Position numbers and translations under genes: made by a program
Source: Candidatus Saccharimonadales bacterium
GTDB lineage: Bacteria; Patescibacteriota; UBA1384; 2-12-FULL-50-11
Direction of reading: 5' to 3'
Assembly (NCBI GenBank): GCA_035480235.1
Contig: DATIHX010000008.1
Coordinates: 96,104 to 160,103 of the forward strand
DNA length: 64,000 bases
In this document: piece after piece, positions 6,310 to 51,393 of the stretch
Position numbering within the stretch: position 1 is the first letter of the stretch
Layout: every line of letters starts with the position of its first letter
Notes under the pieces: model-generated
Seen by the model: the letters and a program-made list of their open reading frames with translations, nothing else
Told to the model about the DNA's origin: nothing
Database searches by the model: none

Positions 6310-6430
6310 GACCTTTTGGGGCAATAATTTAATAACCAATATTCAAGTTACAAATAATATCCAAGTTCTTAATACTTAAATATTTCCCGTTTTAAGTATT
6401 ATTTATAACTTAGCTATTGAATATTATTAC

Positions 6431-7765
6431 TTACCTCGGGATGTATTGTGTTCCGCTGTCGGAATCTACGACTTCGTAGCCGTGCTGGAGGAGTTCGGCT
6501 TTGCGGTTGTCGGCCGTTAAGAAATCGCCTCTGGTCCGGGCGGCGTCACGGTCGGTAGCTAATTGCATCGCCTCGGCGTTCTTTTCTATTGGGGTGTACA
6601 CCAGGCCGAAAATATCCAAGAGTTTTTCTATTTCGGGTTTGCTGAGTGCGTCGGCGTGTTCGCCCCAGATTTGGAGGGCTAGCGGTGAATCCAGGTCGTC
6701 GTTGAGGGCGCTAATAATTTCTTCAAAGGTTTTATTATCTGAGTTCTCTGGGGCAACAGCATATGCCATAAAAATTTTCTTCCGGAGCGCGACACCTTGT
6801 TCCATCGAGGCCTTGGTGTAATCGAACGGTTTGCGGTAATGGGTTAGGTAGAAGGCTAGCCGAAGCTCGTTGGCCGAATACTGTTTGAGGGCGTCAGTCA
6901 CCAAGATACCGTTATGGAACGACTTGCTCATCTTTTGGCCGTTGACCGACAGCATGCCGGAGTGAACCCAGTAATGGGCCATCTCTTTGCCGGTTAGGCT
7001 CTCACTCTGAGCGATCTCGTTCTCATGGTGCGGGAAGACGTGCTCCACGGCCGAACCGTGAATATCGAAGGTATCGCCCAAGTATTTGCGGCTCATGGCT
7101 GAACATTCGATGTGCCAACCGGGGTAGCCGCGACCCCAGGGCGAGTCCCAGATGTAATCGTGGGTGGTAACGGGAGCAGCTTTCCAGAGGGCAAAATCGG
7201 CTGGCGAGCGCTTGTCTGAGGCCGTTTCTACCCGGGTTCCTGTCAGGACCTCGGTGAGGCCGCGGTGGCTGAGTTTGCCGTAATCCATATCTTTAGCAAC
7301 GCTAAAATAGACGTTATTCTGGGCAGTAACATATGCGAAACCTTTTTGAACCAGTTGTTCGATAAACTTGATAATATCTCCGATATGCTCCGAAGCTCTG
7401 GGAAATTGGTCCGGCGGGAGAATGTTGAGGCTCTTCAAATCTGACAGGTGGGCCTCGGTGAAGTGCTCAACAATCTGGCGTACCGTCTCGCCACTCTCCT
7501 GGGCCTTCTGTTGAACCTTATCGCGGCCGACTTCGGCGTCACCGGCTAGGTGGCCGACATCAGTGATGTTTTGAATGTATTCAACCTGGTAACCAGAGAA
7601 CCGCAAAAAACGATTCAAAAGGTCGAAACTCAGGTATGTCCGGGCGTGGCCGACGTGATCGTAGTCGTAAACGGTCGGACCGCAGACGTACATTTTCACC
7701 TTGTTCGGCTCAACAGGGTTAAAGTCTTCTTTCCGGCCGGAGAGGGTGTTGTAGAGCTGGAACAT
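6431..7765 (-). CDS. cysS: cysteinyl-tRNA synthetase
   Basis: HVGHARTY (HIGH-type) and KMSKS motifs over the full-length class I fold. Confidence 0.95.
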   Translation of the reverse strand: MFQLYNTLSGRKEDFNPVEPNKVKMYVCGPTVYDYDHVGHARTYLSFDLLNRFLRFSGYQVEYIQNITDVGHLAGDAEVGRDKVQQKAQESGETVRQIVEHFTEAHLSDLKSLNILPPDQFPRASEHIGDIIKFIEQLVQKGFAYVTAQNNVYFSVAKDMDYGKLSHRGLTEVLTGTRVETASDKRSPADFALWKAAPVTTHDYIWDSPWGRGYPGWHIECSAMSRKYLGDTFDIHGSAVEHVFPHHENEIAQSESLTGKEMAHYWVHSGMLSVNGQKMSKSFHNGILVTDALKQYSANELRLAFYLTHYRKPFDYTKASMEQGVALRKKIFMAYAVAPENSDNKTFEEIISALNDDLDSPLALQIWGEHADALSKPEIEKLLDIFGLVYTPIEKNAEAMQLATDRDAARTRGDFLTADNRKAELLQHGYEVVDSDSGTQYIPR

Positions 7766-8251: not shown

Positions 8252-8275
8252 CTTGATATATTATAATATATCAAG
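8252..8275. repeat. 24-nt perfect palindrome (the core of the 54760-54799 palindrome)
   Basis: CTTGATATATTATAATATATCAAG, 85 nt upstream of the zinc-ribbon gene start. Confidence 0.9.
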
Positions 8276-8321
8276 GCGTTCGAGGGGAAAGAAGATTGTG
8301 TGTGTAAACTGGTAAGAAGCG

Positions 8322-11891: not shown

Positions 11892-12075
11892 CAGCCAGGG
11901 CTGCCGTTCTATTCCAAAGGACAAGGGGCTTTTTGCGAGGCAGCCCCTTATCCTGTGGAGACTCCAATCCCTTCTCGCTTCTCTACGAGGTAAGGAGAAA
12001 ACCTCCGACTGCAAACCGGCAAATGGCACTGTTTGCTCCTCCGGTTTTAGGAACTATTTTATAGGCGACAAAAAG
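11892..12075 (+). ncRNA. structured intergenic repeat family, copy A
   Basis: Shares a conserved core and helices with 16825-17008, 38781-38971 and 51192-51383 (see findings). Confidence 0.6.
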
Positions 12076-12087
12076 AGAGGTAATACC

Positions 12088-16824: not shown

Positions 16825-17008
16825 CAGCCAAGGCTACAGTTTTCATTGGAAAGGACAGGGGGCCTATTTGCGAGGCAGCCCCCTATCCTCTCCACTCCAA
16901 CCCCTGCACGCTTCTCACAGAGGTGTGGTGAAAACCTCCGGCTGCAAACCGGCAACTGGCACTGTTTGCTCCTACGGTTTTAGGAACTATTTAATAGCTA
17001 CAAAAAAG
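16825..17008 (+). ncRNA. structured intergenic repeat family, copy B
   Basis: Same architecture as copy A. Confidence 0.6.
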
Positions 17009-17029
17009 CTCGGGATTTCAAACCCGAGC
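17002..17029 (-). terminator. terminator of the membrane protein gene
   Basis: GCTCGGG-TTTGAAAT-CCCGAGC followed by T6 on the minus strand. Confidence 0.75.
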
Positions 17030-18984: not shown

Positions 18985-20010
18985 CTACGGAGTGACGTTA
19001 CCGGTTCCCCCATAGACATTAAAGTCGTAGATACTAAGTAAAGTGCCGGATTTGCGGTCGACGGTGGCCAACAGCGTCCGTTTGGTGGCGCCGGCGTAAC
19101 CGGTGGCGGTGATTTTGCTGACGGTGGAATCGAAGTTAACGTTGGCGCTGGTGGTGCCGCTGGAGCTGGTGACGGTGGAAAAGGTGGCGCCGACGCTGCC
19201 CAAATTGTAACAACTGGAGCCGACGCCGCTGGTGCCGAGTGGCCGAATGCGCAAAGTGCTCGCCACGCTGCCGCCGCCGGTACCGCCTCGTATCAGCAAA
19301 TTGGTTCCCTGGGCTGCCGAGTCGTAAGTGGGCTGGCTGCCGATTTGGCTAACGACCACTTGTGGCTGGAATTGAGTGCCGCTACCGTTTTGGTTGATTT
19401 GTTGAATCGTCACCGAGCAGCCGCTGGGGTTGCCGGTCCAGCTGAATTGATAGCGAAGATAATAGTCGTTGGTTGAATCGGGAAAACCGGTTAATTCCAA
19501 GCTGTCGTCTTGGGCGATCGGGCTGGCTAATGTCAGAGCGGCGTTGGTGGTTTTGTAGTCGACTTTCAAGTCGTAGTATTGGTGAACTGGGTTGTAGCCG
19601 CTGGTCGAGGTGATGGTAGTGTTATCCTGAACGTTGCCAACGGCACTGCCGGCGGTTAGGTCGTAGCGCTCAGCAGTACTTAAGACAGCCCCGTTGGTGT
19701 CGCGGCGAATGGTGTCGACGTTGCGGCCGAACCTAAAGCGAACCAAGCCGTCTTCGATGCCGGCTTTGGCGGCGTAATAAGCAGCGACGTTATCTTCGTC
19801 GGCCGACGACTGGCCAAACTGCACCAGCGCCAACCGCTGAACGCCGAGGGTTACCGTGACGATGCCGGCCACCACCAGCATAACGAAAATTAGACTACTC
19901 GCCGAGGATCGGCGAGCAGAATTACTGAATCTTCGAATTACTGAATTACTGATTTTTTCCGGATTTAGTAATTTAGTCATTGAGTTATTACGTAATTCTT
20001 TCTTAGTCAT
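18985..20010 (-). CDS. pilin-like/minor pilin protein with an AT-rich-encoded leader
   Basis: The start is taken at the ATG overlapping the upstream stop (ATGA). N-terminus MTKKELRNNSMTKLLNPEKISNSVIRRFSNS followed by a hydrophobic helix. Confidence 0.6.
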   Translation of the reverse strand: MTKKELRNNSMTKLLNPEKISNSVIRRFSNSARRSSASSLIFVMLVVAGIVTVTLGVQRLALVQFGQSSADEDNVAAYYAAKAGIEDGLVRFRFGRNVDTIRRDTNGAVLSTAERYDLTAGSAVGNVQDNTTITSTSGYNPVHQYYDLKVDYKTTNAALTLASPIAQDDSLELTGFPDSTNDYYLRYQFSWTGNPSGCSVTIQQINQNGSGTQFQPQVVVSQIGSQPTYDSAAQGTNLLIRGGTGGGSVASTLRIRPLGTSGVGSSCYNLGSVGATFSTVTSSSGTTSANVNFDSTVSKITATGYAGATKRTLLATVDRKSGTLLSIYDFNVYGGTGNVTP

Positions 20011-20816
20011 ATTGCTCCCGGCACCACCGTGGTATCTAAAGTGTAACAGGTGCCGGCGCCGAGGGTGGCGCAAGTTTGGGCAGCATCGCCGGCCGGTTTC
20101 AGATCGAAGTGGATTTTGACGTACGGCGAAGCCGTGGCGCTTTTGGCAGCGGCGATGTCGAGACCGCTAAAGACCGGCGTCAGGCCGCCAAGGCCGTCGG
20201 CGACGTAGGCGCTGCTCAACAAGTCGGCCGGGGTGGCTGGTGGGCTGGCCGCCGCACACGGCGCGGTTTGGCTGGCGACCACGGGGTTGCCGCCGCCAAG
20301 TGGGGTGCAAACCGACAAGCCGCGCAACTCGTAGACGTAAACGCTTGGCCGGTTATTGAGGGTTTGGGCGGCGTAGAGGCGCCAAACCAAATCCCCTGCC
20401 CCGGTGGCGCCTGGGTACTTCAACAGCAGTTCGGCTTCGTCACAGCCAAAAGCGTTACCCAACCGAACGCCCGTAAAGATGCTAGCCGGCGAGCCGCAGC
20501 TGCTTTTGAGCGAAGCTGGTTGGTCGACGGTATCCACGTAGTGCAAGTCGTTGGTGAGTTGGTCAGTCACCGACCGAGCGGCTTGAACTTGGGCCCGGAC
20601 GACGTTACTTTGGCTGCTAGAGCTGACCGAACGGGCAAAAGCGGCAATGGCCAGAACGATGAGGCCGGAAAAGATCAGCACCGAGACCAGGAGTTCGATG
20701 AGGGTGTAGGCTCGGCGAGAAGCTCTCGCCGAATGACTAAATCTCTGAATTACTGAATTACTGAGTCTATTTAGTAATTTAGTAATTTCGTAATTTCGTA
20801 ATTTTTTTCTGATCAT
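20007..20816 (-). CDS. type IV pilin-like protein (pseudopilin)
   Basis: 36-aa leader, then YTLIELLVSVLIF. ATGA overlap with the upstream gene. Confidence 0.75.
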   Translation of the reverse strand: MIRKKLRNYEITKLLNRLSNSVIQRFSHSARASRRAYTLIELLVSVLIFSGLIVLAIAAFARSVSSSSQSNVVRAQVQAARSVTDQLTNDLHYVDTVDQPASLKSSCGSPASIFTGVRLGNAFGCDEAELLLKYPGATGAGDLVWRLYAAQTLNNRPSVYVYELRGLSVCTPLGGGNPVVASQTAPCAAASPPATPADLLSSAYVADGLGGLTPVFSGLDIAAAKSATASPYVKIHFDLKPAGDAAQTCATLGAGTCYTLDTTVVPGAI

Positions 20817-21640
20817 TGCCCGCTCCCCCCGGTGCCAAAGTTGGCGCCACTGAATCCAGCCGTTTGCTCAAAGCCTTTCCAGTTGGTGAGTAATGTTGCC
20901 ACGTCGGCGACGGTGAAGCCGGTTTTATTGCTTGTAACAACCACCGAGCGAACTTTGACGGCGTTGCCGGCCGGGATGATGGTGGGGCTGTTGGTAGCAA
21001 CGCTGGAGAGTTCGTCGCGATTAAGACTGGCTTGAGTGTTGGTGCAGTAGTTGTTAGCGCTGTCGCAAGGGGCGGTGGTGTGCGAGCGGTCGCCGTCGCT
21101 GGCGATCGCTGAGCCGCCGGCGCTAGTGTTACAGCTATCGGTGGTGGCGTCCCGCCGGGTAACAGCCCCGACCGACTCCAGGCAAATCAGGCGAAAAGCC
21201 GTCAGCGACTGGCTGGTTTTGGCTTCGCTATTGGTGTTGTTAAGGGTAGTAAAATCGATGGTATTGCCCAGACCAGTGGCTTTAGTGAGCGCCCAATTGT
21301 TACCGTTTTGGCTTAACGTGTACCAGCCGTAATTAGCCGGGTCGGTGGCTTCGTTGAGCCAAATTGAGTTATTGCCGTCGTTGTTGCCCGCCAGTAAATT
21401 ATCGTCGCGATGAGCGGCGGTGAGCTCCAACCCCTCGCTGGCCCAACGGTTGAGAATGGTGACATCGGCGTTAACGGCTGTCCCCCGGATAATTGAGTTG
21501 TTGAGGCCAACAATCGCCCCGGAAACGATAAATAAGATACCCCCGGCAATTAGTACTTCCAACAACGTGAAACCCTTCTTAGAATTACTAAATAACTTAA
21601 TTTTAGTAATTTTATTATTTAGTAATTTTCTTATTGCCAT
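20813..21640 (-). CDS. type IV pilin-like protein
   Basis: MAIRKLLNNKITKIKLFSNSKKG then FTLLEVLIAGGILF. Confidence 0.8.
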   Translation of the reverse strand: MAIRKLLNNKITKIKLFSNSKKGFTLLEVLIAGGILFIVSGAIVGLNNSIIRGTAVNADVTILNRWASEGLELTAAHRDDNLLAGNNDGNNSIWLNEATDPANYGWYTLSQNGNNWALTKATGLGNTIDFTTLNNTNSEAKTSQSLTAFRLICLESVGAVTRRDATTDSCNTSAGGSAIASDGDRSHTTAPCDSANNYCTNTQASLNRDELSSVATNSPTIIPAGNAVKVRSVVVTSNKTGFTVADVATLLTNWKGFEQTAGFSGANFGTGGSGQ

Positions 21641-21651
21641 TTAGTCATTAC

Positions 21652-22335
21652 CTAGTTATAGGTTGAAGTTATTTTACCGGTAAAATTATCTACATTAACT
21701 GTGGCGGTGCGGCCGTTGAAAGTCAATTGGAAAAGCGGATGAGTAAAATTGGTGATGGTATCAACCTGCCAGCTCTTGCCAACTTTGCTGAAGCTGGTCA
21801 GCTGCTTGATCGGGGCTTTGAACGCCACCACGGCCGAGCTGGCCGACTGGTTAGCGAGGCTGTCGCCGCCCGAAAGTTGATCCTGTTCAACCAAGCAGCT
21901 ACTCGAAGTGGCGGCGGCGTTGATGCCGCAACTGCCGCCGTTCAAATCGGTAGAGAGCTTAACGATCCGGTAGCTGGTTTGCCCGCTCCCCGGGGCGATG
22001 AGTAGGGCGTAATAGGTGCTGTCTGGGTCGGCTTGAAAGTTTGAACTACCCGAAGAAAGCTGGGTAGAACCGGCCAGCAGCCGGACGTACTCAATTTTAC
22101 TTTCTAGCAAGGTGACGTCGTCGGCCAGACGATTAACAGAAAGTGACCGCGAGACATTAGTCACCAAGATGCCGGTTAACAGGCCAATAATGGCGATGGT
22201 GATTAATAACTCGACCAGAGTAAAAGCCCGCTTGCGAGGGAATATCGAATATCGAATTTCGAATTTCGAAACAAATCCAAAATACAAATTCTTAAATTTC
22301 GGATTTCGGATTTCGGATTTCGGATTTTCTTTCAT
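21652..22335 (-). CDS. type IV pilin-like protein
   Basis: The start ATG overlaps the pilD stop (ATGA). 37-aa leader MKENPKSEIRNPKFKN...RKRA followed by FTLVELLITIAIIG. Confidence 0.8.
   Translation of the reverse strand: MKENPKSEIRNPKFKNLYFGFVSKFEIRYSIFPRKRAFTLVELLITIAIIGLLTGILVTNVSRSLSVNRLADDVTLLESKIEYVRLLAGSTQLSSGSSNFQADPDSTYYALLIAPGSGQTSYRIVKLSTDLNGGSCGINAAATSSSCLVEQDQLSGGDSLANQSASSAVVAFKAPIKQLTSFSKVGKSWQVDTITNFTHPLFQLTFNGRTATVNVDNFTGKITSTYN
22240..22323 (-). repeat. two heptanucleotide tandem repeats inside the pilin leader coding region
   Basis: (GAATWTC)x4 at 22240-22267 and (ATTTCGG)x4 at 22296-22323. Confidence 0.9.
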
Positions 22336-23108
22336 AGCCCCATCCCCCCAAGGTACCAAGCGATAGCCGTGGTTCCCCAAAAAAGGGCGAGCAGGCCGCC
22401 GATAATCAGGAACGGCCCAAAGGGCACGGCGGTTTTCAGTTTAGCCCGTTTGGTTAAGAGTAAAATCGCCCCAAAAACGCCGCCGATCACAAAAGCCAAT
22501 GAGACAAAAACAATGGCGTTCGGGTAACCGGCCAGTAACCCTAGGCCGGCGGCTAGCTTCAAGTCGCCCTCGCCCATCCAGGTGCCGCGGCTGGGGTAAA
22601 CCAGGAGCGCCACCGGCAGAAAACCAATCAGTGCCCCGTACAAACTGTGCAATGGGTTCTGGTAGTACAAAAGCGAAAAAATGGCGGCGCCAAAAAGCAA
22701 AACGTAGGCAAAAAAGTCCGGGATCAACATCTCTTTAAGGTCGTGGAAAAACATCACTACCAAAGCGCCAATAGCGACGATAAAAGCGATGAAAGCGCCA
22801 ATTTGGGAGGCGAGGGTTAAGCTGGAAGTATTGAAAATTAAAAAGTAGCCGCCGGCCAGCAAAAAAGCCGTGGCAGTTTCCACTACCGGGTACTGCCAGG
22901 AAATTGGCCGGCCGCAGTAACGACAGCGGCCTTTGAGGGTGGCGTAACTAATAACCGGGATCAGGTCGTACCATCTTAAATCGGTGCGGCAGTCTGGGCA
23001 GTGGGAGCGACCGGTTAAAATGGTCCGCCACTCGTCAAAGCGCAAAATCACCACGTTCAAGAATGAGCCGAAGACTAAGCCGAAAACAAAAGCGACGATT
23101 CCCCCCAT
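22332..23108 (-). CDS. pilD: prepilin peptidase (A24 family)
   Basis: CPDC...RCRYC zinc motif, multi-TM, aspartyl peptidase A24 pattern. Confidence 0.93.
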   Translation of the reverse strand: MGGIVAFVFGLVFGSFLNVVILRFDEWRTILTGRSHCPDCRTDLRWYDLIPVISYATLKGRCRYCGRPISWQYPVVETATAFLLAGGYFLIFNTSSLTLASQIGAFIAFIVAIGALVVMFFHDLKEMLIPDFFAYVLLFGAAIFSLLYYQNPLHSLYGALIGFLPVALLVYPSRGTWMGEGDLKLAAGLGLLAGYPNAIVFVSLAFVIGGVFGAILLLTKRAKLKTAVPFGPFLIIGGLLALFWGTTAIAWYLGGMGL

Positions 23109-23288: not shown

Positions 23289-23855
23289 CTATTGCGGACC
23301 GTAAACGACCCAAGCTCGGACGTTGTTACCCATAGTGGTTAACTGATACGCCGCGCCGTTACCTGGCGTTACTGTACCGGTCGCGCCGGCCAAGTACTCA
23401 CCGTTACCGGTGGCGACTGTGCCTTCCGTGCCGTTCTGCAAAGCCGCGGCCGCCGCATAGTTGGTGGTCGTAGCGTTCGAGGTGTATTTGGCGGTGTTGT
23501 AGCCAGTAAACACCTGCGAAGTCGCGCCGCCGGTGACGTACGAAGCCAAACAAGCGCCCAGCGTTACCCCAGCGTTGGCGCAGTTGGAAACCGTGCCGCC
23601 GTTGATGTTGACGCCGTTAGCCGCCGCCGTTGGGTAGGCCCCGGTCGTTTGATCGGAGTAGTACTGCTCCAACGTAGTCGAGAGCGTGCGCAAGTTATTC
23701 TTGGTTTGAGTGTCGGCGGCTCGCAGACGAGCACCGGTCAGCGAAGTAATAATCAACGCCGCCAAGATACCGATAATGGCGATGACGACGAGCAATTCAA
23801 TTAACGTAAACCCGCGCCGGCCAACCAAAGCAAAACCTTTTTTCATCTTATTCAT
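23289..23855 (-). CDS. pilA: type IV major pilin
   Basis: MNKMKKGFALVGRRG then FTLIELLVVIAIIGILAAL. It has its own promoter and terminator. Confidence 0.9.
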   Translation of the reverse strand: MNKMKKGFALVGRRGFTLIELLVVIAIIGILAALIITSLTGARLRAADTQTKNNLRTLSTTLEQYYSDQTTGAYPTAAANGVNINGGTVSNCANAGVTLGACLASYVTGGATSQVFTGYNTAKYTSNATTTNYAAAAALQNGTEGTVATGNGEYLAGATGTVTPGNGAAYQLTTMGNNVRAWVVYGPQ

Positions 23856-23987: not shown

Positions 23988-25064
23988 TTATTGAATGACG
24001 CTGGAAAGGTTGTAGATCGGCACGATGATGGAGAAGATCAAGAACGCCACGCCGAGGCCGACAATCACAAAGACGATCGGCTCGACCAGCGCCGAGATAT
24101 TTTTAATCTGTTGGTTGGTTTGGGCTTCGTAGAAGTCGGCCAATTTTGATAAGACCTGTTCGAGTTTGCCGGTTTTTTCGCCGGCGGCGACCATTTCGGT
24201 GATGGCCGCTGGAAATTCGGGGAATTTGGCTAAGGTTTGGGAGATCGGGGCGCCGCGCTCGACGTTGCGGGCCACCACTAAGAGAGCGTCGCGGTAGACG
24301 ACGCTGTCGAGCACCAACGCCACCGAATCGAGGGCCGTAATAATCGGCACGCCGGCCGAGATCATAATGCCCAGAATCCGGGTGAAGCGGGCCATTTCCA
24401 AAGAAACGAACATCCCGCCGAAAACCGGAATTTTAATGACCCAAGTATTAATAAAACGCTGACCTTCTTCGCTCCGGACAAAGCGGATAATTAAGTAAAT
24501 TAATATTCCCAGGCCGATAATATAGAGGTACCAGTAGGCGATCAGCGAATTGGTCAGCGCTACGACCGTCCGGGTGGTCCAGGGCAAGGTGGCGTGGCTT
24601 TGTTTGAAGACTACTTCGAGGGCTGGGACGATCTTGGTGACCATAATAATGCCAACGAAAAACATCGCCACAATAATGAAAGCTGGGTAGAGTAAGGCCC
24701 CCAAAACTTTCGAGCGGAAGCCATAATCGCGCTCCAGTTCGTCGGCTAAGAGACCTAAAGCAACGTCGAGTTTACCCGAGGCTTCGCCGGCCGCCACCAC
24801 CGAAACAAAAACGTGATTGAAAACTTTTGGATGTTTTTGGATGGCATCGGAGAATTTGTAGCCGTTTTCCAAATCAGCGACGATCGCCGTTAAGGCCGTT
24901 TGAACGGCTTTGTTTTGCGACTGCTCGGCCAGCGAACGGGTGGCTTGGGCTAGCGGCAAGCCGGCATCCAGCATCACCGCCAGTTGCCGAGCCACAAACG
25001 ACCGATCCGACGCCGGCACCGTGCCCAAAATATTGGCAATAGACAGGCTTTGGGTCTGGGCCAC
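23988..25064 (-). CDS. pilC: type IV pilus platform protein (GspF/PilC family)
   Basis: Two GspF-like repeats with three TM helices. GTG start. Confidence 0.93.
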   Translation of the reverse strand: MAQTQSLSIANILGTVPASDRSFVARQLAVMLDAGLPLAQATRSLAEQSQNKAVQTALTAIVADLENGYKFSDAIQKHPKVFNHVFVSVVAAGEASGKLDVALGLLADELERDYGFRSKVLGALLYPAFIIVAMFFVGIIMVTKIVPALEVVFKQSHATLPWTTRTVVALTNSLIAYWYLYIIGLGILIYLIIRFVRSEEGQRFINTWVIKIPVFGGMFVSLEMARFTRILGIMISAGVPIITALDSVALVLDSVVYRDALLVVARNVERGAPISQTLAKFPEFPAAITEMVAAGEKTGKLEQVLSKLADFYEAQTNQQIKNISALVEPIVFVIVGLGVAFLIFSIIVPIYNLSSVIQ

Positions 25065-25129
25065 TAGAAATCTCCGATTTCTAGAATTACTAAATTACTG
25101 AATTTTTCCGGATTTAGTAATTTAATCAT
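25064..25129 (-). other. 21-codon AT-rich mini-ORF whose stop overlaps the pilC start (TAGTG)
   Basis: MIKLLNPEKFSNLVILEIGDF*. The nucleotide module is shared with the pilin leaders. Confidence 0.4.
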
Positions 25130-25197
25130 TTTGCGAAGTGATAACAGAGCGAATGTAAATGGATAATACATTTAGTAATTTAGTAATTATTTCCTCG

Positions 25198-26265
25198 TTA
25201 GTAGACCATCATCTTGAAGGCTTTCGGGTCGATCGCCCAAGCCAGCGCCGTGTCGATGGTAATCTCGCCGCGACTGACTAATTCGGCTAAGACTTTATCG
25301 AGGGCGATCATCCCTTCAGAGGCCGAGGTCTGAATAATGTTGGGTAGTTGGTGAGTCTTGCCTTCGCGGATGGTGTTACGAACGGCTGAGTTGGCCACCA
25401 TAATTTCGGTGGCCAGCACCCGCCCGCCCTGAACTTTCGGCAACAAACGCTGCGAGACCACGCCCAAAAGGACGTTAGCGAGTTGCATCCGCACTTGCAT
25501 TTGTTGATGCGGCGGGAAAACGTCGATAATTCGGTCGGCGGTTTGGGCGGCCGAGTTGGTGTGTAAAGTAGTGAACACCAGGTGGCCGGTTTCAGCCAGG
25601 GTTAAGGCGGCTTCGATGGTTTCCAAATCGCGCATCTCGCCCACTAAAACCACGTTCGGGTCCTCGCGCAAGGCGCTGCGCAAAGCCCGGCTGAAGGAAT
25701 TGGTATCAACGCCAACTTCTCGCTGAACGACGATCGACTTTTGATGCTCAAAAACGTACTCGATCGGGTCTTCGATGGTAATAATGTGTTCGGCCCGGGT
25801 TTGGTTGATATGCTCCACCAGCGCCGCCAAGGTGGTGGATTTGCCGTGACCGGTTGGGCCGGTAATGATCACAAAACCCTGGCTGGGCTCGGCAAAGCGC
25901 TCGAGAATTGGCGGCACGCCGAGTTGTTCCATCGTTTTAATGGCCACTGGAATCAGCCGCAGCGCCGCCCCGATGTTGCCCTTTTGGTAAAAAGCGTTGG
26001 TTCGGAAGCGCATCTTTTGGTAACCGAATGAAAAATCCAGCTCCCGCCGGGTAGTCAGCCGCTCTGTTTGCTCCGGCGTCATAATGCTGGAGAGTAGCCG
26101 TTCGGCCGTTTCGGCGGTCAGGACGCCTTGGTCGGTCAGCGCCAACAGCCGGCCGTCAACTCGCAAAATCGGTGGCGTCCCCACCGTGATATGTAAATCC
26201 GAAGCGTTTTTCTCGACCGCTAAGTCGAGTAAACTTTTCATCTGGGCAGTCAAAGCTTCAGCCAT
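25198..26265 (-). CDS. pilT: twitching motility ATPase PilT
   Basis: GPTGHGKST Walker A, 355 aa, PilT family. Confidence 0.95.
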   Translation of the reverse strand: MAEALTAQMKSLLDLAVEKNASDLHITVGTPPILRVDGRLLALTDQGVLTAETAERLLSSIMTPEQTERLTTRRELDFSFGYQKMRFRTNAFYQKGNIGAALRLIPVAIKTMEQLGVPPILERFAEPSQGFVIITGPTGHGKSTTLAALVEHINQTRAEHIITIEDPIEYVFEHQKSIVVQREVGVDTNSFSRALRSALREDPNVVLVGEMRDLETIEAALTLAETGHLVFTTLHTNSAAQTADRIIDVFPPHQQMQVRMQLANVLLGVVSQRLLPKVQGGRVLATEIMVANSAVRNTIREGKTHQLPNIIQTSASEGMIALDKVLAELVSRGEITIDTALAWAIDPKAFKMMVY

Positions 26266-26428
26266 TGTTAATTCCCTCCATGCTTATTCCCATCGTACAA
26301 TAAATAATTTTCATCGGCGAATCTGCCAACATTACAAATATCCAATAACCAATAATCAAGTAGCAAGGATTGAATATTAATTATTTGATTATTATTTGAA
26401 TATTGACTATTGATTATTGAAAATTTTT

Positions 26429-28903
26429 TCATTCGGTCGTTCCTGGTACTTCTTTAATCGAGGTCATGGTGACGCGCATCACTTCATCCACCGTCGTTAA
26501 GCCCTTGAGGGCTTTCATCAAGCCGTCTTGGACCATCGTCACCATGCCGTTTTTGATCGCCGCTTTCTGCAGCTCCGAGGCCGGGGCTTTCTTGACGGCC
26601 AAGTTTTCGATTTCTTCGTTCATCGCCATAACTTCGAAGATACCCACCCGGCCGCGGAAGCCATCGGTGCAGTTCGGGCAGCCTTTGCCGTGGTAGAAAA
26701 CCAGTTGCTCCAGATCCACCGCCTTCAACTGGCCGCTCGGCACGGCCGCCAATTCCCGTTGAGCCCGGGCCAACACCGCCGGCGGCACCGCCACTTTTTC
26801 CCGGCAGTCTTCGCAAATCCGCCGCACCAACCGCTGGCCGATGACGGCGTTTAACGACGAAGTGATGAGGAACGGCTCGATGCCCATATCGATCAAGCGC
26901 GGCAGCGCCCCCGAGGCTTCGTTGGTGTGAAGGGTGGAAAGCACCAAGTGGCCGGTCAGGGCCGCCTGGGTAGCCATCGCCGCCGTTTCCAAATCGCGGA
27001 TTTCGCCGACCATAATGACATTCGGGTCTTGGCGCAGCACCGAGCGCAAACCTTCGGCAAAAGTAAAGCCGATCTGCGGCATCACCTGGGCTTGGTTCAA
27101 ACCTGGCAGCTCGTACTCTACCGGGTCTTCCAGGGTAATAATGTTGACGCCGGGGCGGGAGATGCGCGTTAAAATGGAGTAAAGCGTGGTCGATTTACCG
27201 CTACCGGTCGGGCCGGTAGAGAGGATAATGCCGTACGGCTTGGCGATGTTTTTAATTAAGACGTCGAAGTTCGAGCCGGTCAGGCCCAACTGCTCCAGCG
27301 TTTGCATGCCCTCGGATTTATCCAGCAAGCGCATCACCACTTTTTCGCCGTGAATGGTCGGCAAGGTGGAAACCCGCAAATCGACTTGCCGTTTATCCAG
27401 CACCACATCAAACCGGCCGTCTTGCGGCACCCGGCTCTCGTCGATTTTCATTTTGGAGAGGATCTTAATGCGGGCGATGAGCGGCGCGTGCAAAAAGCTC
27501 GGCGCCTTAACGATGTCGTGCAAAATGCCGTCGATCCGGTAACGAATCCGCAAGTACTCTTTTTCGGTTTCCAGGTGGACGTCGCTGGCCCGCATCCGGA
27601 TGGCTAAGAACAGCACCGCTGCCACTACTTCCGGCACCATGCCGGTTTTGAAGACTTCGGCCAAATCAGCGGTGGAAGTGACTGGTTTTTTGATCAATTT
27701 ATCGAGGTCTTGGTCTTCCAATGAGGCCTGCTGGGCCTCGGCCATCCGGGCCAGCTCCTTCACCGACTCGGCTGTTGGCCGGTTGACGATATCGCCAGCC
27801 GTTAAGGTGACCAATGTTTGCTCGCCGGCGGCTGGCGGTTGGCTTTCACTCCTTAAAATCGGCGACGGGGTGGCCGAAGCTGGCACGGTTTCGCCGGTGG
27901 CAGCGCCTGGCGGGGCACCGGCCGTTTCCGCCAGAGGCGCGGCCGAAGGCAGCGCGCTTGGTGGTTGTTCGACCTGGCGAGCCGGATGGTAATACTTGGC
28001 TTCGGGGTAGAGCTTGAGCGCCGCTTCAAAAGAGGCCGTCGTCGTGCGGTAGCGGTCGATCAGCAGTTTGTTCCGGTTTTCGATGTAGGCCAAAATTTCT
28101 TTGACGTGGAGGCTCTCGGGTTCCACCATCGCCACTTTAATCATCGGCGGCTCGAATGGCCCGGGGTGGCGGCTGGCGTCAAAAACAATCAGTTGGTACC
28201 GTTTGGCTACCGCGTAAGGGATTTGGTTGAGAGTGGCCGGCGGAATTGCTTGGCCAGTTAAATCAATGGTTTTACCGACGCCTTCGACGGTTTTATGGAG
28301 CTCGGAATGTGCCGGCGTCGCGGCGATTGGCAGGCTTTTGGGCGGGGCCGGCGGAAGCGGCAGAATGTCGAGCGGAGCCGGTTTCAACTCGGCCGCTGGT
28401 TGGTCGTAGGCTTTAATCACCACCGCCTCGGCGTCGCCCGGCGGCACCACCACCAATTTAATATGGAGGCCTTTTTCTTTGCGCAGCCGCACCAACGCCC
28501 CCGGGGCGTCGCGCTGCAACAGCGCCGGGTCGGTAACGGCCAGGGTCAAAACGGCATTTTTCAGCTCGAAGGGTAGCACCTTATAGCGTTCGATCGCCTC
28601 GCGCGGCAAGAGCTTGACCACGCTGGGGTTAATCGGCCGGTCAACTAACCGTTCAAACGGTAAGCCAAAAAATTCGGCCAAGAGCTCCAAGAGCGGCTGC
28701 GGCTCAACCAGCCGGTGGTGCAGAATATAGGCGCGAATTTCGGCGATGGTTCGGCCGTGCAAAACTTGCCGGAAGCCGGGTTTCAGCAGCCCTTTTTCCA
28801 CCAAAAAATTCAGCAAACTCCGGGCAGAAGCGCTGGCTGGGGCGGAGAGATCGCCGGGCCGCGCTACCTTGTCCTCAACCGGTAAGTGGGTGTTGGCCGG
28901 CAT
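26429..28903 (-). CDS. pilB: type IV pilus assembly ATPase PilB/GspE with a long N-terminal extension
   Basis: GPTGSGKST, tetracysteine CEDC...CPNC, N-terminal GspE_N-like domains and a Pro/Ala-rich linker. Confidence 0.93.
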   Translation of the reverse strand: MPANTHLPVEDKVARPGDLSAPASASARSLLNFLVEKGLLKPGFRQVLHGRTIAEIRAYILHHRLVEPQPLLELLAEFFGLPFERLVDRPINPSVVKLLPREAIERYKVLPFELKNAVLTLAVTDPALLQRDAPGALVRLRKEKGLHIKLVVVPPGDAEAVVIKAYDQPAAELKPAPLDILPLPPAPPKSLPIAATPAHSELHKTVEGVGKTIDLTGQAIPPATLNQIPYAVAKRYQLIVFDASRHPGPFEPPMIKVAMVEPESLHVKEILAYIENRNKLLIDRYRTTTASFEAALKLYPEAKYYHPARQVEQPPSALPSAAPLAETAGAPPGAATGETVPASATPSPILRSESQPPAAGEQTLVTLTAGDIVNRPTAESVKELARMAEAQQASLEDQDLDKLIKKPVTSTADLAEVFKTGMVPEVVAAVLFLAIRMRASDVHLETEKEYLRIRYRIDGILHDIVKAPSFLHAPLIARIKILSKMKIDESRVPQDGRFDVVLDKRQVDLRVSTLPTIHGEKVVMRLLDKSEGMQTLEQLGLTGSNFDVLIKNIAKPYGIILSTGPTGSGKSTTLYSILTRISRPGVNIITLEDPVEYELPGLNQAQVMPQIGFTFAEGLRSVLRQDPNVIMVGEIRDLETAAMATQAALTGHLVLSTLHTNEASGALPRLIDMGIEPFLITSSLNAVIGQRLVRRICEDCREKVAVPPAVLARAQRELAAVPSGQLKAVDLEQLVFYHGKGCPNCTDGFRGRVGIFEVMAMNEEIENLAVKKAPASELQKAAIKNGMVTMVQDGLMKALKGLTTVDEVMRVTMTSIKEVPGTTE

Positions 28904-34260: not shown

Positions 34261-34977
34261 ATGTTCAATAAATGTTTGGTGGTCAAGGGCGAGCGTAAAC
34301 ACGATATGACCAAGTACGATTCTGAGTGGTTCACGCTCAAAAAGATAGTTAAATGCAAAAAGTGTGGTCGAGCCGTTTCCTCTTATTGGGGTCGCAAGAA
34401 CATCTACCTCCGCTGTAGCGGCTCAGGCCAGAATAGCTGTGGCAACCCAAATACCGCCGAATCGCTCGTCATTGGCCCGATTATCGATGATATCGCTCAA
34501 GCTCAAGTACCCGAGAATCTTATCCCAAAAGTGATTGCTGAACTAAAGAATCGGCACGAAAACCAGCAGCTCTATTTCACGCAAAATATCGAGCAAACCA
34601 GGAAAGAGTACGACGGAATCAAGGAAAAAATGAAAAGAATTTACTACGACCTAATGGACGGTCGTATTACTCCGCAGCTGCACGACGAAATCGCAAATGA
34701 ATTAGAAGGTCGGCAGCAGATTCTTAACGACCGGCTCAAAAAGCTAACGAGTGATAACAAAAGCTTCCAAGTAACCGCTTCTTACCTGTTAGACCTCGCC
34801 CAGCGAGCTTCTGAGCTTTTCAAATGTTCGAATTACGAGCTTAGACACAAGCTTCTGAGTTACATGCTTTCGAACATCGAATTAGAGGACAAAAAGCTCT
34901 CGTATGTGCTCAACGACCCCTTTAAAACCATCATCGAGCAAAAGAAAAAGGCCCAAGCTGGACCTAATTCTACTATT
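34261..34977 (+). pseudogene. C-terminal fragment of a large serine recombinase (zinc ribbon plus coiled coil, no catalytic domain)
   Basis: CKKCG...LRCSG...CGN zinc-ribbon pattern and coiled coil. The resolvase N-terminus is missing. The ORF tail reads through the antisense of tRNA-Trp. Confidence 0.6.
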
Positions 34978-35051
34978 TGGCAGGGACGGGGAGAATCGAA
35001 CTCCCAGTTCGGGTTTTGGAGACCCGTGGTTTACCATTAACCGACGTCCCT
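34978..35051 (-). tRNA. tRNA-Trp (CCA)
   Basis: Folded by hand: acceptor AGGGACG/CGTCCCT, anticodon loop CTCCAAA, T-arm GGGAG-TTCGATT-CTCCC, CCA encoded. Confidence 0.92.
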
Positions 35052-35096
35052 AAAGAACTGTTTAATCTTACCAATTGTTGCTCTTTGGGTCGAGGT

Positions 35097-35120
35097 AAGA
35101 AAAAAGGCCCCGAAGGGGCC
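35097..35120 (-). terminator. terminator after the kinase-like gene
   Basis: GGCCCC-GAA-GGGGCC followed on the minus strand by a U-run. Confidence 0.75.
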
Positions 35121-35128
35121 GTGGTAAT

Positions 35129-35701
35129 TCAGCGATAGAATTGGATAACTTCCCAGTTGTCGGTAGCCCAGCACTTCAAAAACTGATGAAGATTAGCCAA
35201 CTCCCCGGTGTTGTTAACGACAACATCCGCCATCGCGATGGGACCGCCAGTCTGAAGGTTCTCCAGCTGGGCGTGATCACGAGCGATAGCATCCTCACGA
35301 GAAAGCGCCCGATCAGGCCGTTTGGCGGCTCGATCATAGCGCAATTCTGGCGGGGCCCAGACGGCCATAACGATCATTTGAGGAAACCTCTCCTTGAGAA
35401 ATAGGTACTCAGCCCAAGAGTAAAGGCCATCAATGACCGTGTCTCCCAACTTGAGTTTCGCCTCAATCTCTTCCAGGTTAAGCAATGCCATTGCCGCCGG
35501 GCCGTGATCCCTGCGGAGCTGTTCGCGAAGCGGTTTCTCATGTTCCTGGGTGTGGGGTAATCCTTTTTCATCAAGAACCCTCAAGACCGTGCCACCGAAA
35601 TAGACCTTCTCAAAACGCATATATTCGACGAGGTACGAGACAACCTCGCCCTTTCCGCTGAAGGGCATCCCTACAACGGCAATCAGACGATTACTTGCCA
35701 T
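35129..35701 (-). CDS. P-loop nucleotide/nucleoside kinase-like protein
   Basis: Walker A VVGMPFSGKGEV, ~190 aa, kinase-sized. Confidence 0.6.
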   Translation of the reverse strand: MASNRLIAVVGMPFSGKGEVVSYLVEYMRFEKVYFGGTVLRVLDEKGLPHTQEHEKPLREQLRRDHGPAAMALLNLEEIEAKLKLGDTVIDGLYSWAEYLFLKERFPQMIVMAVWAPPELRYDRAAKRPDRALSREDAIARDHAQLENLQTGGPIAMADVVVNNTGELANLHQFLKCWATDNWEVIQFYR

Positions 35702-35748
35702 AGCGGAATACTACTTGTTTTCAACCGAGATGTCCAGACCCTCAGGCC

Positions 35749-35913
35749 TTACTTACTCTCTTTGTGAGCGGTGGCTTTTTGGCAACGCTTGCAAAACTTC
35801 ATCAACTCCAGGCGGGTTGGGGTTTTGACTTTGTTTTTCTCACTATAATAGTTCCGTTCTTTGCAGACGGAGCATTCCAGCGTGATGCGTTCGCGGGTGG
35901 ATTTCTTGGCCAT
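35749..35913 (-). CDS. rpmG: 50S ribosomal protein L33 (zinc-binding type)
   Basis: Hand-translated 54 aa, [54 protein letters not shown]. It falls below the ORF-track size cut-off. Confidence 0.9.
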
Positions 35914-35969
35914 TTGTTTTTCTAGTTTATCTGAAAAATATTAAACTGTCCAGATTATATTGTTTTTTG

Positions 35970-36041
35970 AGCCGCCCGTGGGAATTGGACCCACGACCCC
36001 TTCCTTACCATGGAAGTGCTCTGCCACTGAGCTAGGGCGGC
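35970..36041 (-). tRNA. tRNA-Thr (GGT)
   Basis: Acceptor GCCGCCC/GGGCGGC and anticodon loop ATGGTAA. The T-loop reads TCCAATT, with C at position 55, which is unusual. Confidence 0.82.
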
Positions 36042-36093
36042 GATTGGCTAACAGAACAATTTTACCAAAAAGTCTACTGAAAAATAAGAGAAG

Positions 36094-36181
36094 GCTGGGG
36101 GTAGGAAGTCGTCGAGTACTCCTCCGGAAACTCGTCCGCGAGTAAGCGACAATACTCGCGAACTCGTTAGCGAACCCCAGC
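36094..36181 (-). other. tRNA-Tyr-derived tRNA-like element or pseudogene
   Basis: It shares the acceptor stem (GCTGGGG/CCCCAGC), the AACGAG D-region and the CCTAC T-stem half with tRNA-Tyr. The interior is replaced by other hairpins. Confidence 0.4.
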
Positions 36182-36205
36182 AAAGCTGACGGTTCGAGCC
36201 TCTAG

Positions 36206-36244
36206 CACACATAAAAGCTCCCGATTTGGGAGCTTTTATGTGTG
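36206..36244. terminator. 17-bp perfect hairpin directly after tRNA-Tyr
   Basis: CACACATAAAAGCTCCC-GATTT-GGGAGCTTTTATGTGTG. Confidence 0.6.
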
Positions 36245-36326
36245 CTGGGGGTAGGATTCGAACCTACGAAGACACAAGGCCAGCAGATTTACAGTCTGCC
36301 CTCGTTGACCGCTTGAGTACCCCAGC
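36243..36326 (-). tRNA. tRNA-Tyr (GTA)
   Basis: Acceptor GCTGGGG/CCCCAGC, anticodon loop CTGTAAA, long variable arm and T-arm GTAGG-TTCGAAT-CCTAC. Confidence 0.92.
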
Positions 36327-36390
36327 AAAAACATAAGGTGCTCACTAATTCTAACAAAAATATGGTTAGAATTCGACAGCGGGCGATAGC

Positions 36391-36981
36391 TTAACGCTTT
36401 TTGGCCAGTAACCAATCTGGCTCTGGAATAAAAGTAATTTCTTTCCAGTTATCGATCTCATGCTCAGTAAAGTCGTAATATTTTTGGTAGGCGGTCTCGA
36501 CGCTACCGTGCATCGCCTCTTGCCAGTTCAACTCAAGCTTCTGAGCTAGCTCTTTTAACTCGCTTTCTGAACTAGCTTCAAGCTCGACAAAAGTTGGGAT
36601 CCACGGCCAGGTATCGATAGTAATCTCACCAGTCCCAAATTTCCATTTTTCCCTTTTAGTTTCTTGATAGGCCTTTTGCTCCAGCCCAATTGCGATTAAC
36701 AAATCGGCGGTCTTTTGAAAATCGCCAACCGTCGTTTCGATTTCCTTAGTGCCGTGCAGCGAGCGGTCATTAAGCTGTTTGTAAGTAAAGGTAATTTTGT
36801 CGCCTTCGTCGCGGACCCGAACCCAACCGCCGATTTTTTCAAGGCGTGAATCTGGATAATCAAAAACGATCCGGCGCATTTGCCGTTCGGAATACTCCAA
36901 TCTTGCTCCAAGTTTTTTAAGCAATTTCCGGAGCTTTTCTGGGTCGATATCTAAAAACTTGGCTTCAACTTCTACTTCCAT
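36391..36981 (-). CDS. CYTH-domain protein (CyaB/thiamine triphosphatase-like)
   Basis: N-terminal EVEVEAKF (ExExK) signature, 196 aa. Confidence 0.8.
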   Translation of the reverse strand: MEVEVEAKFLDIDPEKLRKLLKKLGARLEYSERQMRRIVFDYPDSRLEKIGGWVRVRDEGDKITFTYKQLNDRSLHGTKEIETTVGDFQKTADLLIAIGLEQKAYQETKREKWKFGTGEITIDTWPWIPTFVELEASSESELKELAQKLELNWQEAMHGSVETAYQKYYDFTEHEIDNWKEITFIPEPDWLLAKKR

Positions 36982-36983
36982 CG

Positions 36984-37056
36984 AGCCACCTGTCGGATTT
37001 GAACCGACGACCCGCGCATTACAAATGCGCCGCTCTGGCCGCTGAGCTAAGGTGGC
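36984..37056 (-). tRNA. tRNA-Thr (TGT)
   Basis: Acceptor GCCACCT/AGGTGGC, anticodon loop TTTGTAA and T-arm GTCGG-TTCAAAT-CCGAC. Confidence 0.92.
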
Positions 37057-38465: not shown

Positions 38466-38750
38466 ATGCCTTTTGAAGACAAAACCCTCAAGTGCAAAGA
38501 GTGCGGCCAAGATTTTATATGGACGGCCGGCGAGCAGCAATTTTTTGCCGACAAAGGTTTTACTAATAAGCCGACCCGCTGCAAAGACTGCCGCAAGATG
38601 AACCGCCAAAAAGTGGAAGCGGAATACTACAAAATTACCTGTTCTGATTGCGGCCAGATCGGCGAGGCGATGTTTAAGCCGAAAGATCCAGATGCCAAGA
38701 TTTATTGCAAAAACTGCTTCGAAACCCGCTTTTTGACGAAGGCAGCCTAG
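38466..38750 (+). CDS. double zinc-ribbon protein
   Basis: CKECG...CKDC and CSDCG...CKNC. Confidence 0.75.
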   Translation: MPFEDKTLKCKECGQDFIWTAGEQQFFADKGFTNKPTRCKDCRKMNRQKVEAEYYKITCSDCGQIGEAMFKPKDPDAKIYCKNCFETRFLTKAA

Positions 38751-38780
38751 GCTGCAGAACTATTTTTTATTTACTGTCTT

Positions 38781-38971
38781 ATGTGGCTAGCGCCACTGAC
38801 TATTATTTGAGGGTGAGGGGGCTAATTTGCTAAGCCGCCCCCTACACCCTCAAACTCCCTACCCCCGCAAGCTTCCTTTGCGGGGCAGTGGTGCAAGCTG
38901 ATGGCTGTCAACCGGCAACTGGCACTGTTTCCTCCATCAGCTTGAAGAACTATTTTATCGGCGGCAAAAAA
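38781..38971 (+). ncRNA. structured intergenic repeat family, copy C
   Basis: See findings. Confidence 0.6.
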
Positions 38972-38984
38972 TTGGGGAAAAGCA

Positions 38985-39013
38985 TTGACAATTAGTTCGA
39001 AATATGCTATAGT
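38985..39013 (+). promoter_or_regulatory. consensus extended -10 promoter
   Basis: TTGACA, 17 nt, (TGC)TATAGT. Confidence 0.72.
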
Positions 39014-39037
39014 TTCTCGGTGTGACGCAACACAAAT

Positions 39038-39295
39038 ATGATTATGCGCACACCACTAAACGGCCTTCGGCCGCCAACAGCATTGCCGCAAGGCATTACT
39101 ATCGTCAACGTTCAGGTACTTTGGGCGACGGGAATACCTGTCTTTGTAAGCCTACCAGCTGGTGTTGAACTAGCTAGTCAGGACTTCATTGGTGGTGTTA
39201 TCCGTTTACCTAAAGGCTCTTACTACTGGAGCTGGCAACTTACCATCTGGGTAGAGTGTCTAACCGAAGTAGTCAGGAGCGGCACTTGGATATGA
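39038..39295 (+). CDS. hypothetical small protein
   Basis: 85-aa ORF lying between a consensus promoter and a terminator. Confidence 0.6.
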   Translation: MIMRTPLNGLRPPTALPQGITIVNVQVLWATGIPVFVSLPAGVELASQDFIGGVIRLPKGSYYWSWQLTIWVECLTEVVRSGTWI

Positions 39296-43979: not shown

Positions 43980-44028
43980 CCGATACCTCCGAAGGTGGAA
44001 ATGTGCGCCCGAAAATCCGAGCAATTGA

Positions 44029-51187: not shown

Positions 51188-51191
51188 GATT

Positions 51192-51383: not shown

Positions 51384-51393
51384 AAAATGGTGA

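Follow-up and report, generated by a model that had tools for sequence, protein, structure and literature searches.

Between the pilT and pilC genes of a type IV pilus locus, in the 64-kb stretch of DNA analyzed here (64,000 nucleotides, hereafter the window), lies an AT-rich palindromic cassette crossed by a short open reading frame (mini-ORF) that ends on the pilC start codon. This arrangement raises the question of where the cassette came from and why a reading frame should lead through it into pilC. Comparison with relatives identifies the spacer as almost entirely inserted DNA. Related cassettes sit at other gene starts in the window and in related sequences, and ORFs bridge cassette spacers much more often than cassette-free ones. 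With a probability of roughly 0.55, we propose that the cassette is a palindromic repeat resembling a miniature inverted-repeat transposable element (MITE), which inserts at gene starts and would survive where it is translated through, either as a leader peptide or as a relay ORF that couples translation.

Filled and empty sites at the pilT-pilC junction

The genes that frame the spacer are encoded on the minus strand.

26429-28903, minus strand: pilB
25198-26265, minus strand: pilT
23988-25064, minus strand: pilC, GTG start, T2SSF family

PilC homologues place the host in Candidatus Berkelbacteria, which is part of the candidate phyla radiation (CPR, or Patescibacteria). Related sequences carry the locus labels L081 to L100, and the syntenic ones among them were obtained through PilC homologues; a PilC search of genome contigs returned only relatives at 37% identity or less, which were useless for synteny. 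The junctions compared are as follows, with PilC identity given relative to the window.

L083: PilC 86% identical, pilT-pilC junction of 7 nt
L084/85: PilC 78-80% identical, pilC frame begins directly after the Shine-Dalgarno (SD) sequence
L086: PilC 69-70% identical, pilC frame begins directly after the SD
L100: PilC 67% identical, junction of 4 nt
L081: PilC 94% identical, palindromic cassette of 108 nt
L082: PilC 89% identical, palindromic cassette of 144 nt
L091: PilC 62% identical, palindromic cassette
L099: PilC 63% identical, palindromic cassette of 142 nt

Cassette-free junctions (L083, L084/85, L086 and L100) consist of an SD and 4-10 nt only. The start position is conserved: the pilC GTG of the window corresponds to the L083 pilC ATG. 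The cassettes found at this junction in L081, L082, L091 and L099 differ in units, loops and junctions. Filled and empty sites were likewise seen at pilB-pilT, at four prepilin leaders and at the argS leader, and prepilin leaders measure 5-11 residues in L084, L099, L100 and L081 pilin 2 versus 23-37 residues with the cassette in the window. An identical spacer is carried by a contig of an NCBI metagenome-assembled genome (MAG; L087, 1 mismatch in 21 kb) and by an independent Logan assembly (L088, 100%), and the cassette spacer is thus not an assembly artefact. Judged by these comparisons, the pilT-pilC cassette is a lineage-specific insertion. The initial annotation of this DNA overlooked its recent insertion, as it did the wider element family, which is not specific to pili.

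In three of the cassette-free loci the called pilC starts lie too far downstream (L084 6063-6159, L085 1967-2063, L086 9924-10000). There, the conserved PilC N-terminus is encoded directly behind the pilT stop and SD, and its start is apparently a codon other than ATG (ATT/ATC in L084).

Anatomy of the inserted DNA

The spacer is built of inverted arrays of an 8-bp unit (TTACTAAA / TTTAGTAA). Instead of the one fixed cassette described in the initial annotation, the repeat is a palindrome in which left and inverted right arrays of 7-8-bp units flank a short loop, with no single fixed sequence. The 46-mer quoted from the spacer is present, 1 nt away from the coordinates given for it (true position 25084-25129), and so is the second copy, at 25171-25188. 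On the coding strand, the pilT TAA is followed by CGAGG, two left units, an ATG, a 39-nt module, an internal ATG, two further left units, the loop, two right units, a second hairpin and finally TG, which completes the pilC GTG with a G supplied by the last base of the hairpin.

25065-25197, minus strand: pilT-pilC spacer, 133 nt
25193-25197, minus strand: CGAGG, now lying 22 nt before the first mini-ORF ATG
25171-25188, minus strand: far-left array of two 8-bp units (AATTACTAAATTACTAAA; the second repeat copy, TTTAGTAATTTAGTAATT), leading into ATG 25171-25169 and able to pair with the right array
25130-25168, minus strand: 39-nt module, found again in the third minor-pilin cassette of L081, where it separates the arrays
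25112-25126, minus strand: near-left array (ATTAAATTACTAAAT)
25104-25111, minus strand: hairpin loop CCGGAAAA, shared with a copy at 19955-19963
25085-25103, minus strand: right array (ATTCAGTAATTTAGTAATT), complementary to both left arrays
25064-25084, minus strand: second hairpin CTAGAAATC-GGA-GATTTCTAG, with an SD-like GGAG in the loop 7 nt before the pilC GTG
25064-25171, minus strand: 35-codon mini-ORF MYYPFTFALLSLRKMIKLLNPEKFSNLVILEIGDF, from ATG 25171-25169 to a TAG at 25066-25064 that overlaps the pilC GTG at 25064-25062
25064-25129, minus strand: 21-codon version of the mini-ORF, from the internal ATG 25129-25127

In comparison with TAA-GAGGGTT-ATG in L083 and TAA-GGAGGGT-ATT in L084, CGAGG is likely the remnant of the ancestral pilC SD. 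Among 96 loci, the module sequence CTTCGCAAAATGA is confined to the pilT-pilC spacer (window, L087 and L088) and to L081.

Reading frames cross the cassettes

The minus-strand reading MIKLLNPEKFSNLVILEIGDF with its terminal stop, given in the initial annotation, proved correct, and its TAG shares one G with the pilC start (TAGTG, 25066-25062). The frame is not limited to the 21 codons recognized at first: it remains open further upstream to the ATG at 25171, giving 35 codons (MYYPFTFALLSLRKMIKLLNPEKFSNLVILEIGDF). Only 1.8% of shuffled pilT-pilC spacers contain a bridging ORF of at least 20 codons. In L081 the mini-ORF is still open, although the 5' half of the cassette differs there.

The first ten cassette spacers tested were all crossed by an ORF, of 23-54 codons, ending between -5 and +1 of the next start, whereas composition-matched shuffles gave an ORF of at least 20 codons in 1.5-6% of trials per spacer. 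We then defined a strict bridging ORF as one that starts with ATG, has at least 20 codons, crosses the cassette and stops at -6 to +2 of the next start. Such ORFs occur in 13 of 21 cassette spacers versus 2 of 38 cassette-free same-strand spacers from the same loci (Fisher p = 3.7e-6), a comparison in which spacers were classed partly by eye and some cases share ancestry. Stop and start are joined as TAGTG, TGATG, TAATG or ATGA, or are separated by 1-2 nt. Several ORFs begin on the upstream stop, namely those at pilB-pilT in the window and in L081, at nusG-rplK in L095, and at the L099 junction, which reads pilT-TAATG-47 codons-TAATG-pilC. Bridging peptides are unrelated between lineages, so that the frame rather than the product seems to matter. 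Openness is not automatic, as the pilB-pilT and pilC-pilin cassettes of L091, downstream of which a promoter and an SD have been retained, contain stops in every frame. The bridging ORFs lend indirect support to the upstream leader peptide or translational coupler that had been suggested for the cassette.

The unit core TTA(C/G)TAA is a pseudo-palindrome that is stop-free in only two of three frames. ITK/LLN and SN/LVI peptides recur because only these two frames per unit are stop-free, which needs no selection on the peptide, and we rejected the conservation of these motifs as a sign of a functional peptide.

We propose the following course of events. AT-rich palindromic elements, here with TTACTAA(A)/TTTAGTAA units, have spread in Berkelbacteria genomes, where they occupy gene boundaries, and would insert at or beside start codons; the pilT-pilC copy separates the likely ancestral SD of pilC from its start codon. 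It seems that only those insertions persist through which ribosomes can read. Within prepilins, the element would be translated as an extra leader, which the prepilin peptidase PilD would cut off. At pilC, pilT, argS, rpsL, rpsG, fusA, rplK and alr, a short relay ORF would span the element; it would begin on or close to either the upstream stop or the old SD/ATG, and end on or beside the true start. Translation of the 35-codon ORF would melt the long AU-rich hairpin as well as the small one whose loop contains the pilC SD. Ribosomes released at TAGTG could then make PilC by termination-reinitiation, which would preserve coupling with pilT. Of this scheme, the sequences themselves show the repeat family, its insertion, copying inside one genome, the palindromic fold and the non-random occurrence of bridging ORFs; translation of the mini-ORF, the dependence of coupling on it and the way the element moves are inferred.

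Predicted folding of the spacer RNA

The core hairpin and the second hairpin together have a predicted energy of -16 kcal/mol (z = -3.2). Two folds are predicted: near-left array pairs with right array in the minimum-energy structure, and far-left array with right array in the centroid. In L081 the second hairpin is kept through an A-to-G change that yields a G.U pair, and analogous stem-GGA-stem-start hairpins precede rpsG in L092 and pilT in L081.

These folds could also be read as an evolved RNA switch, in which two left arrays compete for one right array and translation or stalling in the mini-ORF gates the pilC SD hairpin, tuning the PilC:PilT ratio. Such a device would resemble leader-peptide translational attenuation or an AU-rich RNA thermometer. 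It would make sense of the two mutually exclusive pairings, of an SD placed in a hairpin loop directly before the GTG and conserved in L081 by the G.U change, and of the independent hits at pilT-pilC and pilB-pilT in several lineages (window/L081, L082, L091, L099), which may reflect benefit rather than tolerance. We nevertheless consider a switch unlikely: close relatives manage with a junction of 4-10 nt, loops, units and lengths are not conserved between lineages, the same elements stand before housekeeping genes and between tRNAs, and we saw neither covariation beyond the palindromic origin nor a match to an Rfam family. Rfam gave no family for the cassette at gathering or at permissive thresholds: tRNAs were the only matches in the window, and the best match within 24950-25300 scored 16 bits against a cut-off of 48.

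Two other RNA-level readings were rejected. The AU hairpin lacks the U-tail of a terminator, and a CsrA-type GGA loop in the main hairpin is at odds with the occurrence of CCGGAAAA in only two window copies, the other loops being unrelated.

Related cassettes within the window

Scanning the window for the 10-mer TTTAGTAATT with at most one mismatch gave 33 matches versus 3.8 +/- 2.1 in 100 shuffles, none of which reached 33. The matches cluster at six AATTACT-type sites. Besides pilB, pilT and pilC, the pilus locus comprises the following genes.

23289-23855, minus strand: major pilin
22332-23108, minus strand: prepilin peptidase gene pilD
21652-22335, 20813-21640 and 20007-20816, minus strand: minor prepilins
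18985-20010, minus strand: pilin-like gene

The further cassettes and their ORFs are these.

19920-19990, minus strand: paralogous cassette at the 5' coding end of gene 18985-20010, followed by a GC hairpin CTCGCCGA-TCC-TCGGCGAG
20732-20803, minus strand: cassette of 4+4 units, translated within the 36-residue leader of prepilin 20007-20816
21583-21650, minus strand: cassette translated within the 23-residue leader of prepilin 20813-21640
22240-22330, minus strand: cassette of other units, (AAATCCG)x4.6 ... (GATATTC/GAAATTC)n, in the 37-residue leader of prepilin 21652-22335
26268-26432, minus strand: 54-codon ORF covering the entire pilB-pilT spacer, with an ATG that overlaps the pilB stop (ATGA) and a stop 2 nt upstream of the pilT ATG
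45677-45750, minus strand: cassette of the argS 5' leader, a feature that with its mini-ORF covers 45668-45750

In all three prepilin leaders the cassette is in frame and stop-free and is followed by the N_methyl motif. The L081 ortholog of prepilin 20813-21640 begins MQKRG|FTLLE, without a cassette. The pilB-pilT spacer contains an AT-rich palindromic insertion at ~26345-26428 (hairpin z = -4.3), and three unit types, AATTACT, AAATCCG and ATTGAAT, are found within one pilus operon. Upstream of argS, a 21-codon mini-ORF (MTKLLNSNFVIQKFSNLIILY, 45733-45668) ends with a TGA 1 nt before the argS ATG; this cassette is missing in the relative L098 and half-present in L097.

Small ORFs of 21-58 codons span the pilB-pilT spacer end to end, from the pilB stop to the pilT start, in the window (26268-26432), L081 (6802-6963), L084 (4931-4994) and L099 (~4616-4792). 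They are present even in the cassette-free L084, and gene callers annotated them as a protein in two loci (L087 and L081). Between the pilin stop and argS a TATACT box is conserved (window 45775-45800, L097 ~2890-2905, L098 ~2930-2945), which hints at a promoter for argS upstream of the cassette. Immediately behind the cysS stop (window 6320-6437) is an AT-rich palindromic island of 118 nt whose ATTGAAT-like units resemble the pilB-pilT insertion.

A nearly identical copy of the pilT-pilC core (25085-25129) lies at 19936-19982, where 42 of 45 positions are identical, loop and ATG included, and identity is 84% over 62 nt. This bears out the near-identity to a pilin leader (19937-19980) claimed in the initial annotation as far as the sequence goes. 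The host gene, 18985-20010, lacks a Pfam N_methyl motif; it closes the minor-pilin operon and is pilin-like, but is not proven to be a prepilin. By contrast, there is hardly any alignment between the core and the spacer at the same junction of L081, the 94% relative, so that copies within the genome are far closer to each other than to the copy at the orthologous site. Among the copies seen in other genomes, the closest relative of the core is an L097 pilin leader (MIKLRNINLEKFSNS...), which supports copying between leaders and spacers. The idea that the cassette serves as a recombination substrate for leader exchange is supported by these data in part only.

Copying of this kind could by itself have produced the spacer. 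As an inert relic, it would be a prepilin 5' end, start codon and leader cassette together, brought in by illegitimate recombination or gene conversion, with frame and stop accidental or inherited. The 93% identity of the core, including ATG and frame, to the copy in gene 18985-20010 and its closeness to the L097 leader fit such an origin, as do the three core substitutions relative to that paralog, all of which change the amino acid, and the fact that pilC has its own SD. Accident, however, explains neither the unrelated bridging ORFs in 13 of 21 spacers versus 2 of 38 controls nor the ORF staying open in L081 despite a differing 5' half of the cassette, and we regard an inert relic as improbable.

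Tandem units in the 5' coding ends of surface-structure genes also call to mind phase variation, in which slipped-strand mispairing would add or remove 7-/8-bp units, shift the frame of minor pilins or the mini-ORF and so switch pilus components on and off. No unit has a length divisible by three, and the window and L081 differ in how many units they have and in the period (7 or 8). Yet no cassette differs between the window, L087 and L088, compared as three consensus assemblies, every ortholog seen is in frame, and elements also lie between tRNAs or upstream of promoters, where a frame switch is meaningless. The repeat tracts are short, with a period of 7-8 and just 2-4.6 copies at 68-100% match, and are broken by variant units. 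Phase variation thus appears extremely unlikely.

Spread, orientation and traces of insertion

A metagenome scan with the two-armed pattern found eight loci from Rifle and Hainich groundwater, with several copies per Rifle or Hainich relative. In these loci, AATTACT-type cassettes lie before topA, rpsL, alr and pilC, in two prepilin leaders, between two tRNA genes and upstream of a pilin promoter. Cassettes of other units share the same architecture at rpsL-rpsG, rpsG-fusA, nusG-rplK, pilB-pilT and the L099 pilT-pilC junction. A pilus-specific element was rejected because the same cassette occurs at the rpsL, topA, alr and tRNA sites of the scan. The L095 and L089 copies, on one Hainich contig, are identical at 43 of 46 positions.

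The distribution also bears on a DNA-level site of a pilus regulon, whether an operator array, a promoter or an UP element, with a dimeric regulator reading the pseudo-palindrome TTA(C/G)TAA. The 7-bp unit is itself pseudo-palindromic, and six of seven window cassettes are at pilus genes, the seventh lying directly downstream of another pilin gene (binomial p = 4e-4). In relatives, identical cassettes nevertheless precede rpsL, topA and alr or separate tRNAs, units differ within one operon, and close relatives lack the cassette at the same junction. A strict orientation relative to transcription would be unexpected for a symmetric operator. A sigma-70 consensus scan of the spacer, a type of scan that provides weak evidence, gave no match on the coding strand and a single one on the opposite strand. 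No promoter is needed at pilT-pilC, as close relatives have an SD and a few bases only (7 nt in L083). We consider a regulon site very unlikely, and the promoter or UP element put forward in the initial annotation is not supported, given the tiny junctions of relatives, the differing units and the missing coding-strand site.

Relative to the downstream gene, all eight independent AATTACT-type copies point the same way (p = 0.008). With 45-130 nt, the elements are too small for a transposase gene. Of ten cassettes folded together, six had hairpin z-scores between -3 and -4.5; in another folding, two of five window copies reached -4.4 and -4.5. Direct repeats of 8-11 nt with the downstream start codon flank the elements in L089 (p~0.03), L092 (p~0.05) and L081 (p~0.06). 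Target duplication of a fixed length could not be established at the sites compared.

Sequence duplications adjoin several insertions. In L092 (2247-2390) a diverged 33-codon fusA fragment precedes the real fusA, on the minus strand of L090 (~2860-2960) a 20-nt duplicate of the alr start adjoins the insertion, and two minor pilins, in L082 (14141-14300) and L086 (12661-12790), have the N-methylation motif twice.

Several of our observations argue against an inserted element that is read through, or limit it. Beyond the partly visual classing and shared ancestry mentioned above, both ATGs of the mini-ORF lack a well-placed SD, the old one being 22 nt upstream, and pilC, with a GGAG of its own 7 nt from the GTG, might start independently of the mini-ORF. 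No strict bridging ORF was found at L089 topA, L091 pilB-pilT, L082 (GTG start only) or L097. Antisense frames of some cassettes are likewise long and open, and part of the openness therefore stems from the unit sequence. Flanking direct repeats were absent from five other sites, including those of the window, and vary in length where present. A general domain scan of the window proteins, with no search aimed at a partner element, identified no transposase. Classical transposition is unproven, since window copies lack flanking repeats and no transposase was identified.

We further raise, tentatively, the possibility that these are undescribed mobile palindromic cassettes of a 'self-healing' kind in Berkelbacteria and perhaps in other CPR bacteria whose operons are densely packed and translationally coupled. 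Carrying their own ATG, they would insert at or beside starts and duplicate the start codon; the old start would then drive a relay ORF to the regenerated start, and prepilin leaders would merely be lengthened. The cassettes may have been co-opted to set translation ratios in pilus and ribosomal-protein operons.

Relation to known repeats and coupling systems

Our literature search found no description of these unit-array cassettes. Rickettsia palindromic elements (RPEs) are short dispersed palindromes that are in-frame in protein genes and translated without destroying the protein (PMC10969869). The cassettes resemble them as in-frame translated palindromes, here in three prepilin leaders and one pilin-like gene. 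As published, RPEs are ~100-150 bp long, are not made of 7-8-bp tandem units, occupy many positions in metabolic genes and occur in Alphaproteobacteria. The present cassettes, unlike RPEs, lie only at extreme 5' ends or between genes, also form separate relay ORFs and have a CPR host.

Correia/CREE elements of Neisseria and ERIC/IRU elements of enterobacteria are non-autonomous palindromes, present or absent between strains and mostly upstream of genes, which are co-transcribed, form hairpins and can alter expression (PMC10969869). Palindromy, presence or absence between strains and a position mostly just upstream of genes are common to both groups and our cassettes. Correia and ERIC differ in having a fixed consensus and defined terminal repeats and in acting via promoters, IHF sites or cleavage by RNase III/E. 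Correia and ERIC MITEs make a TA duplication. Systematic through-translation by stop-start-linked mini-ORFs is not described for them, and we found no literature joining MITEs and translational coupling. The 7-8-bp unit arrays, restriction to gene 5' boundaries, strict orientation and stop-start relay ORFs set the family apart from RPEs and from Correia/ERIC.

Termination-reinitiation at overlapping stops and starts (ATGA, TAATG, TGATG) is common in bacterial operons. The TAGTG overlap found here, and TGATG, TAATG, ATGA or a 1-2-nt gap in relatives, are alike in form, whereas the upstream cistron is a sequence-variable filler ORF of repeat DNA and not a productive gene. In the leader-peptide translational attenuation of ermC and cat, a short ORF precedes a hairpin in which the SD or start of the controlled gene is enclosed. 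The short upstream ORF, the SD/start hairpin and possible alternative pairings recur in the cassette, but it has no conserved stalling peptide or inducer logic, and its ORF reaches the start codon instead of ending before the hairpins. Short tandemly repeated heptamers (STRR) are known from cyanobacteria, and the CTCTT repeat of the Neisseria opa leader is a case of phase variation by a coding repeat. Both share with the cassettes tandem units of 5-8 bp in intergenic DNA or in signal or leader DNA of surface proteins. The arrays described here are short and interrupted, have an inverted partner and show no copy-number polymorphism among three assemblies.

Tandem interspaced guide RNA (TIGR) arrays, which are common in CPR bacteria and also found in phages, consist of 36-nt units with two spacers next to a Nop-domain Tas gene (PMC12045711). 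They were rejected as an explanation, as the units here are 7-8 nt without spacers and the neighbours are pil genes.

Other repeats and candidate mobile-element genes

In an unrelated-looking contig (L096 8575-8670, GC 0.43), the same 8-bp units make up the middle of a perfect ~70-nt palindrome, with GAGCGAAAAGTAACA on one side and its complement on the other. A separate repeat family, unrelated to the AT-rich cassettes, has copies of ~90-215 nt with 73-89% identity between them and normal GC content, located at 11961-12082, 16894-17015, 38759-38978 and, inverted, 51191-51405 of the window. The one copy scanned (38650-39050) had no Rfam match. A perfect 25-nt palindrome, CTTGATATATTATAATATATCAAGG, occurs twice, 46 kb apart (window 8252-8276 and 54767-54791).

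Two ORFs in the window may be a remnant of an integrated element.

34261-35040, plus strand: 259-aa ORF with Zn_ribbon_recom as its only domain, beside five tRNA genes (34981-37056)
43059-44024, minus strand: 321-aa ORF with a resolvase-type helix-turn-helix (HTH_7)

Implications for streamlined genomes

If the relay-ORF explanation is correct, a streamlined genome whose genes overlap and are translationally coupled can put up with selfish palindromic DNA by translating it. Insertions would have to be read by ribosomes, either as a disposable leader peptide or as a filler cistron. This would account for the small 'hypothetical proteins' called between pilB and pilT (L087, L081) and for the unusually long prepilin leaders of this lineage. 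It would also provide a search rule, a palindromic array with an ORF across it and a stop-start overlap, which would correct start calls in CPR MAGs. The cassettes would then constitute a natural test set for termination-reinitiation coupling across strong hairpins.

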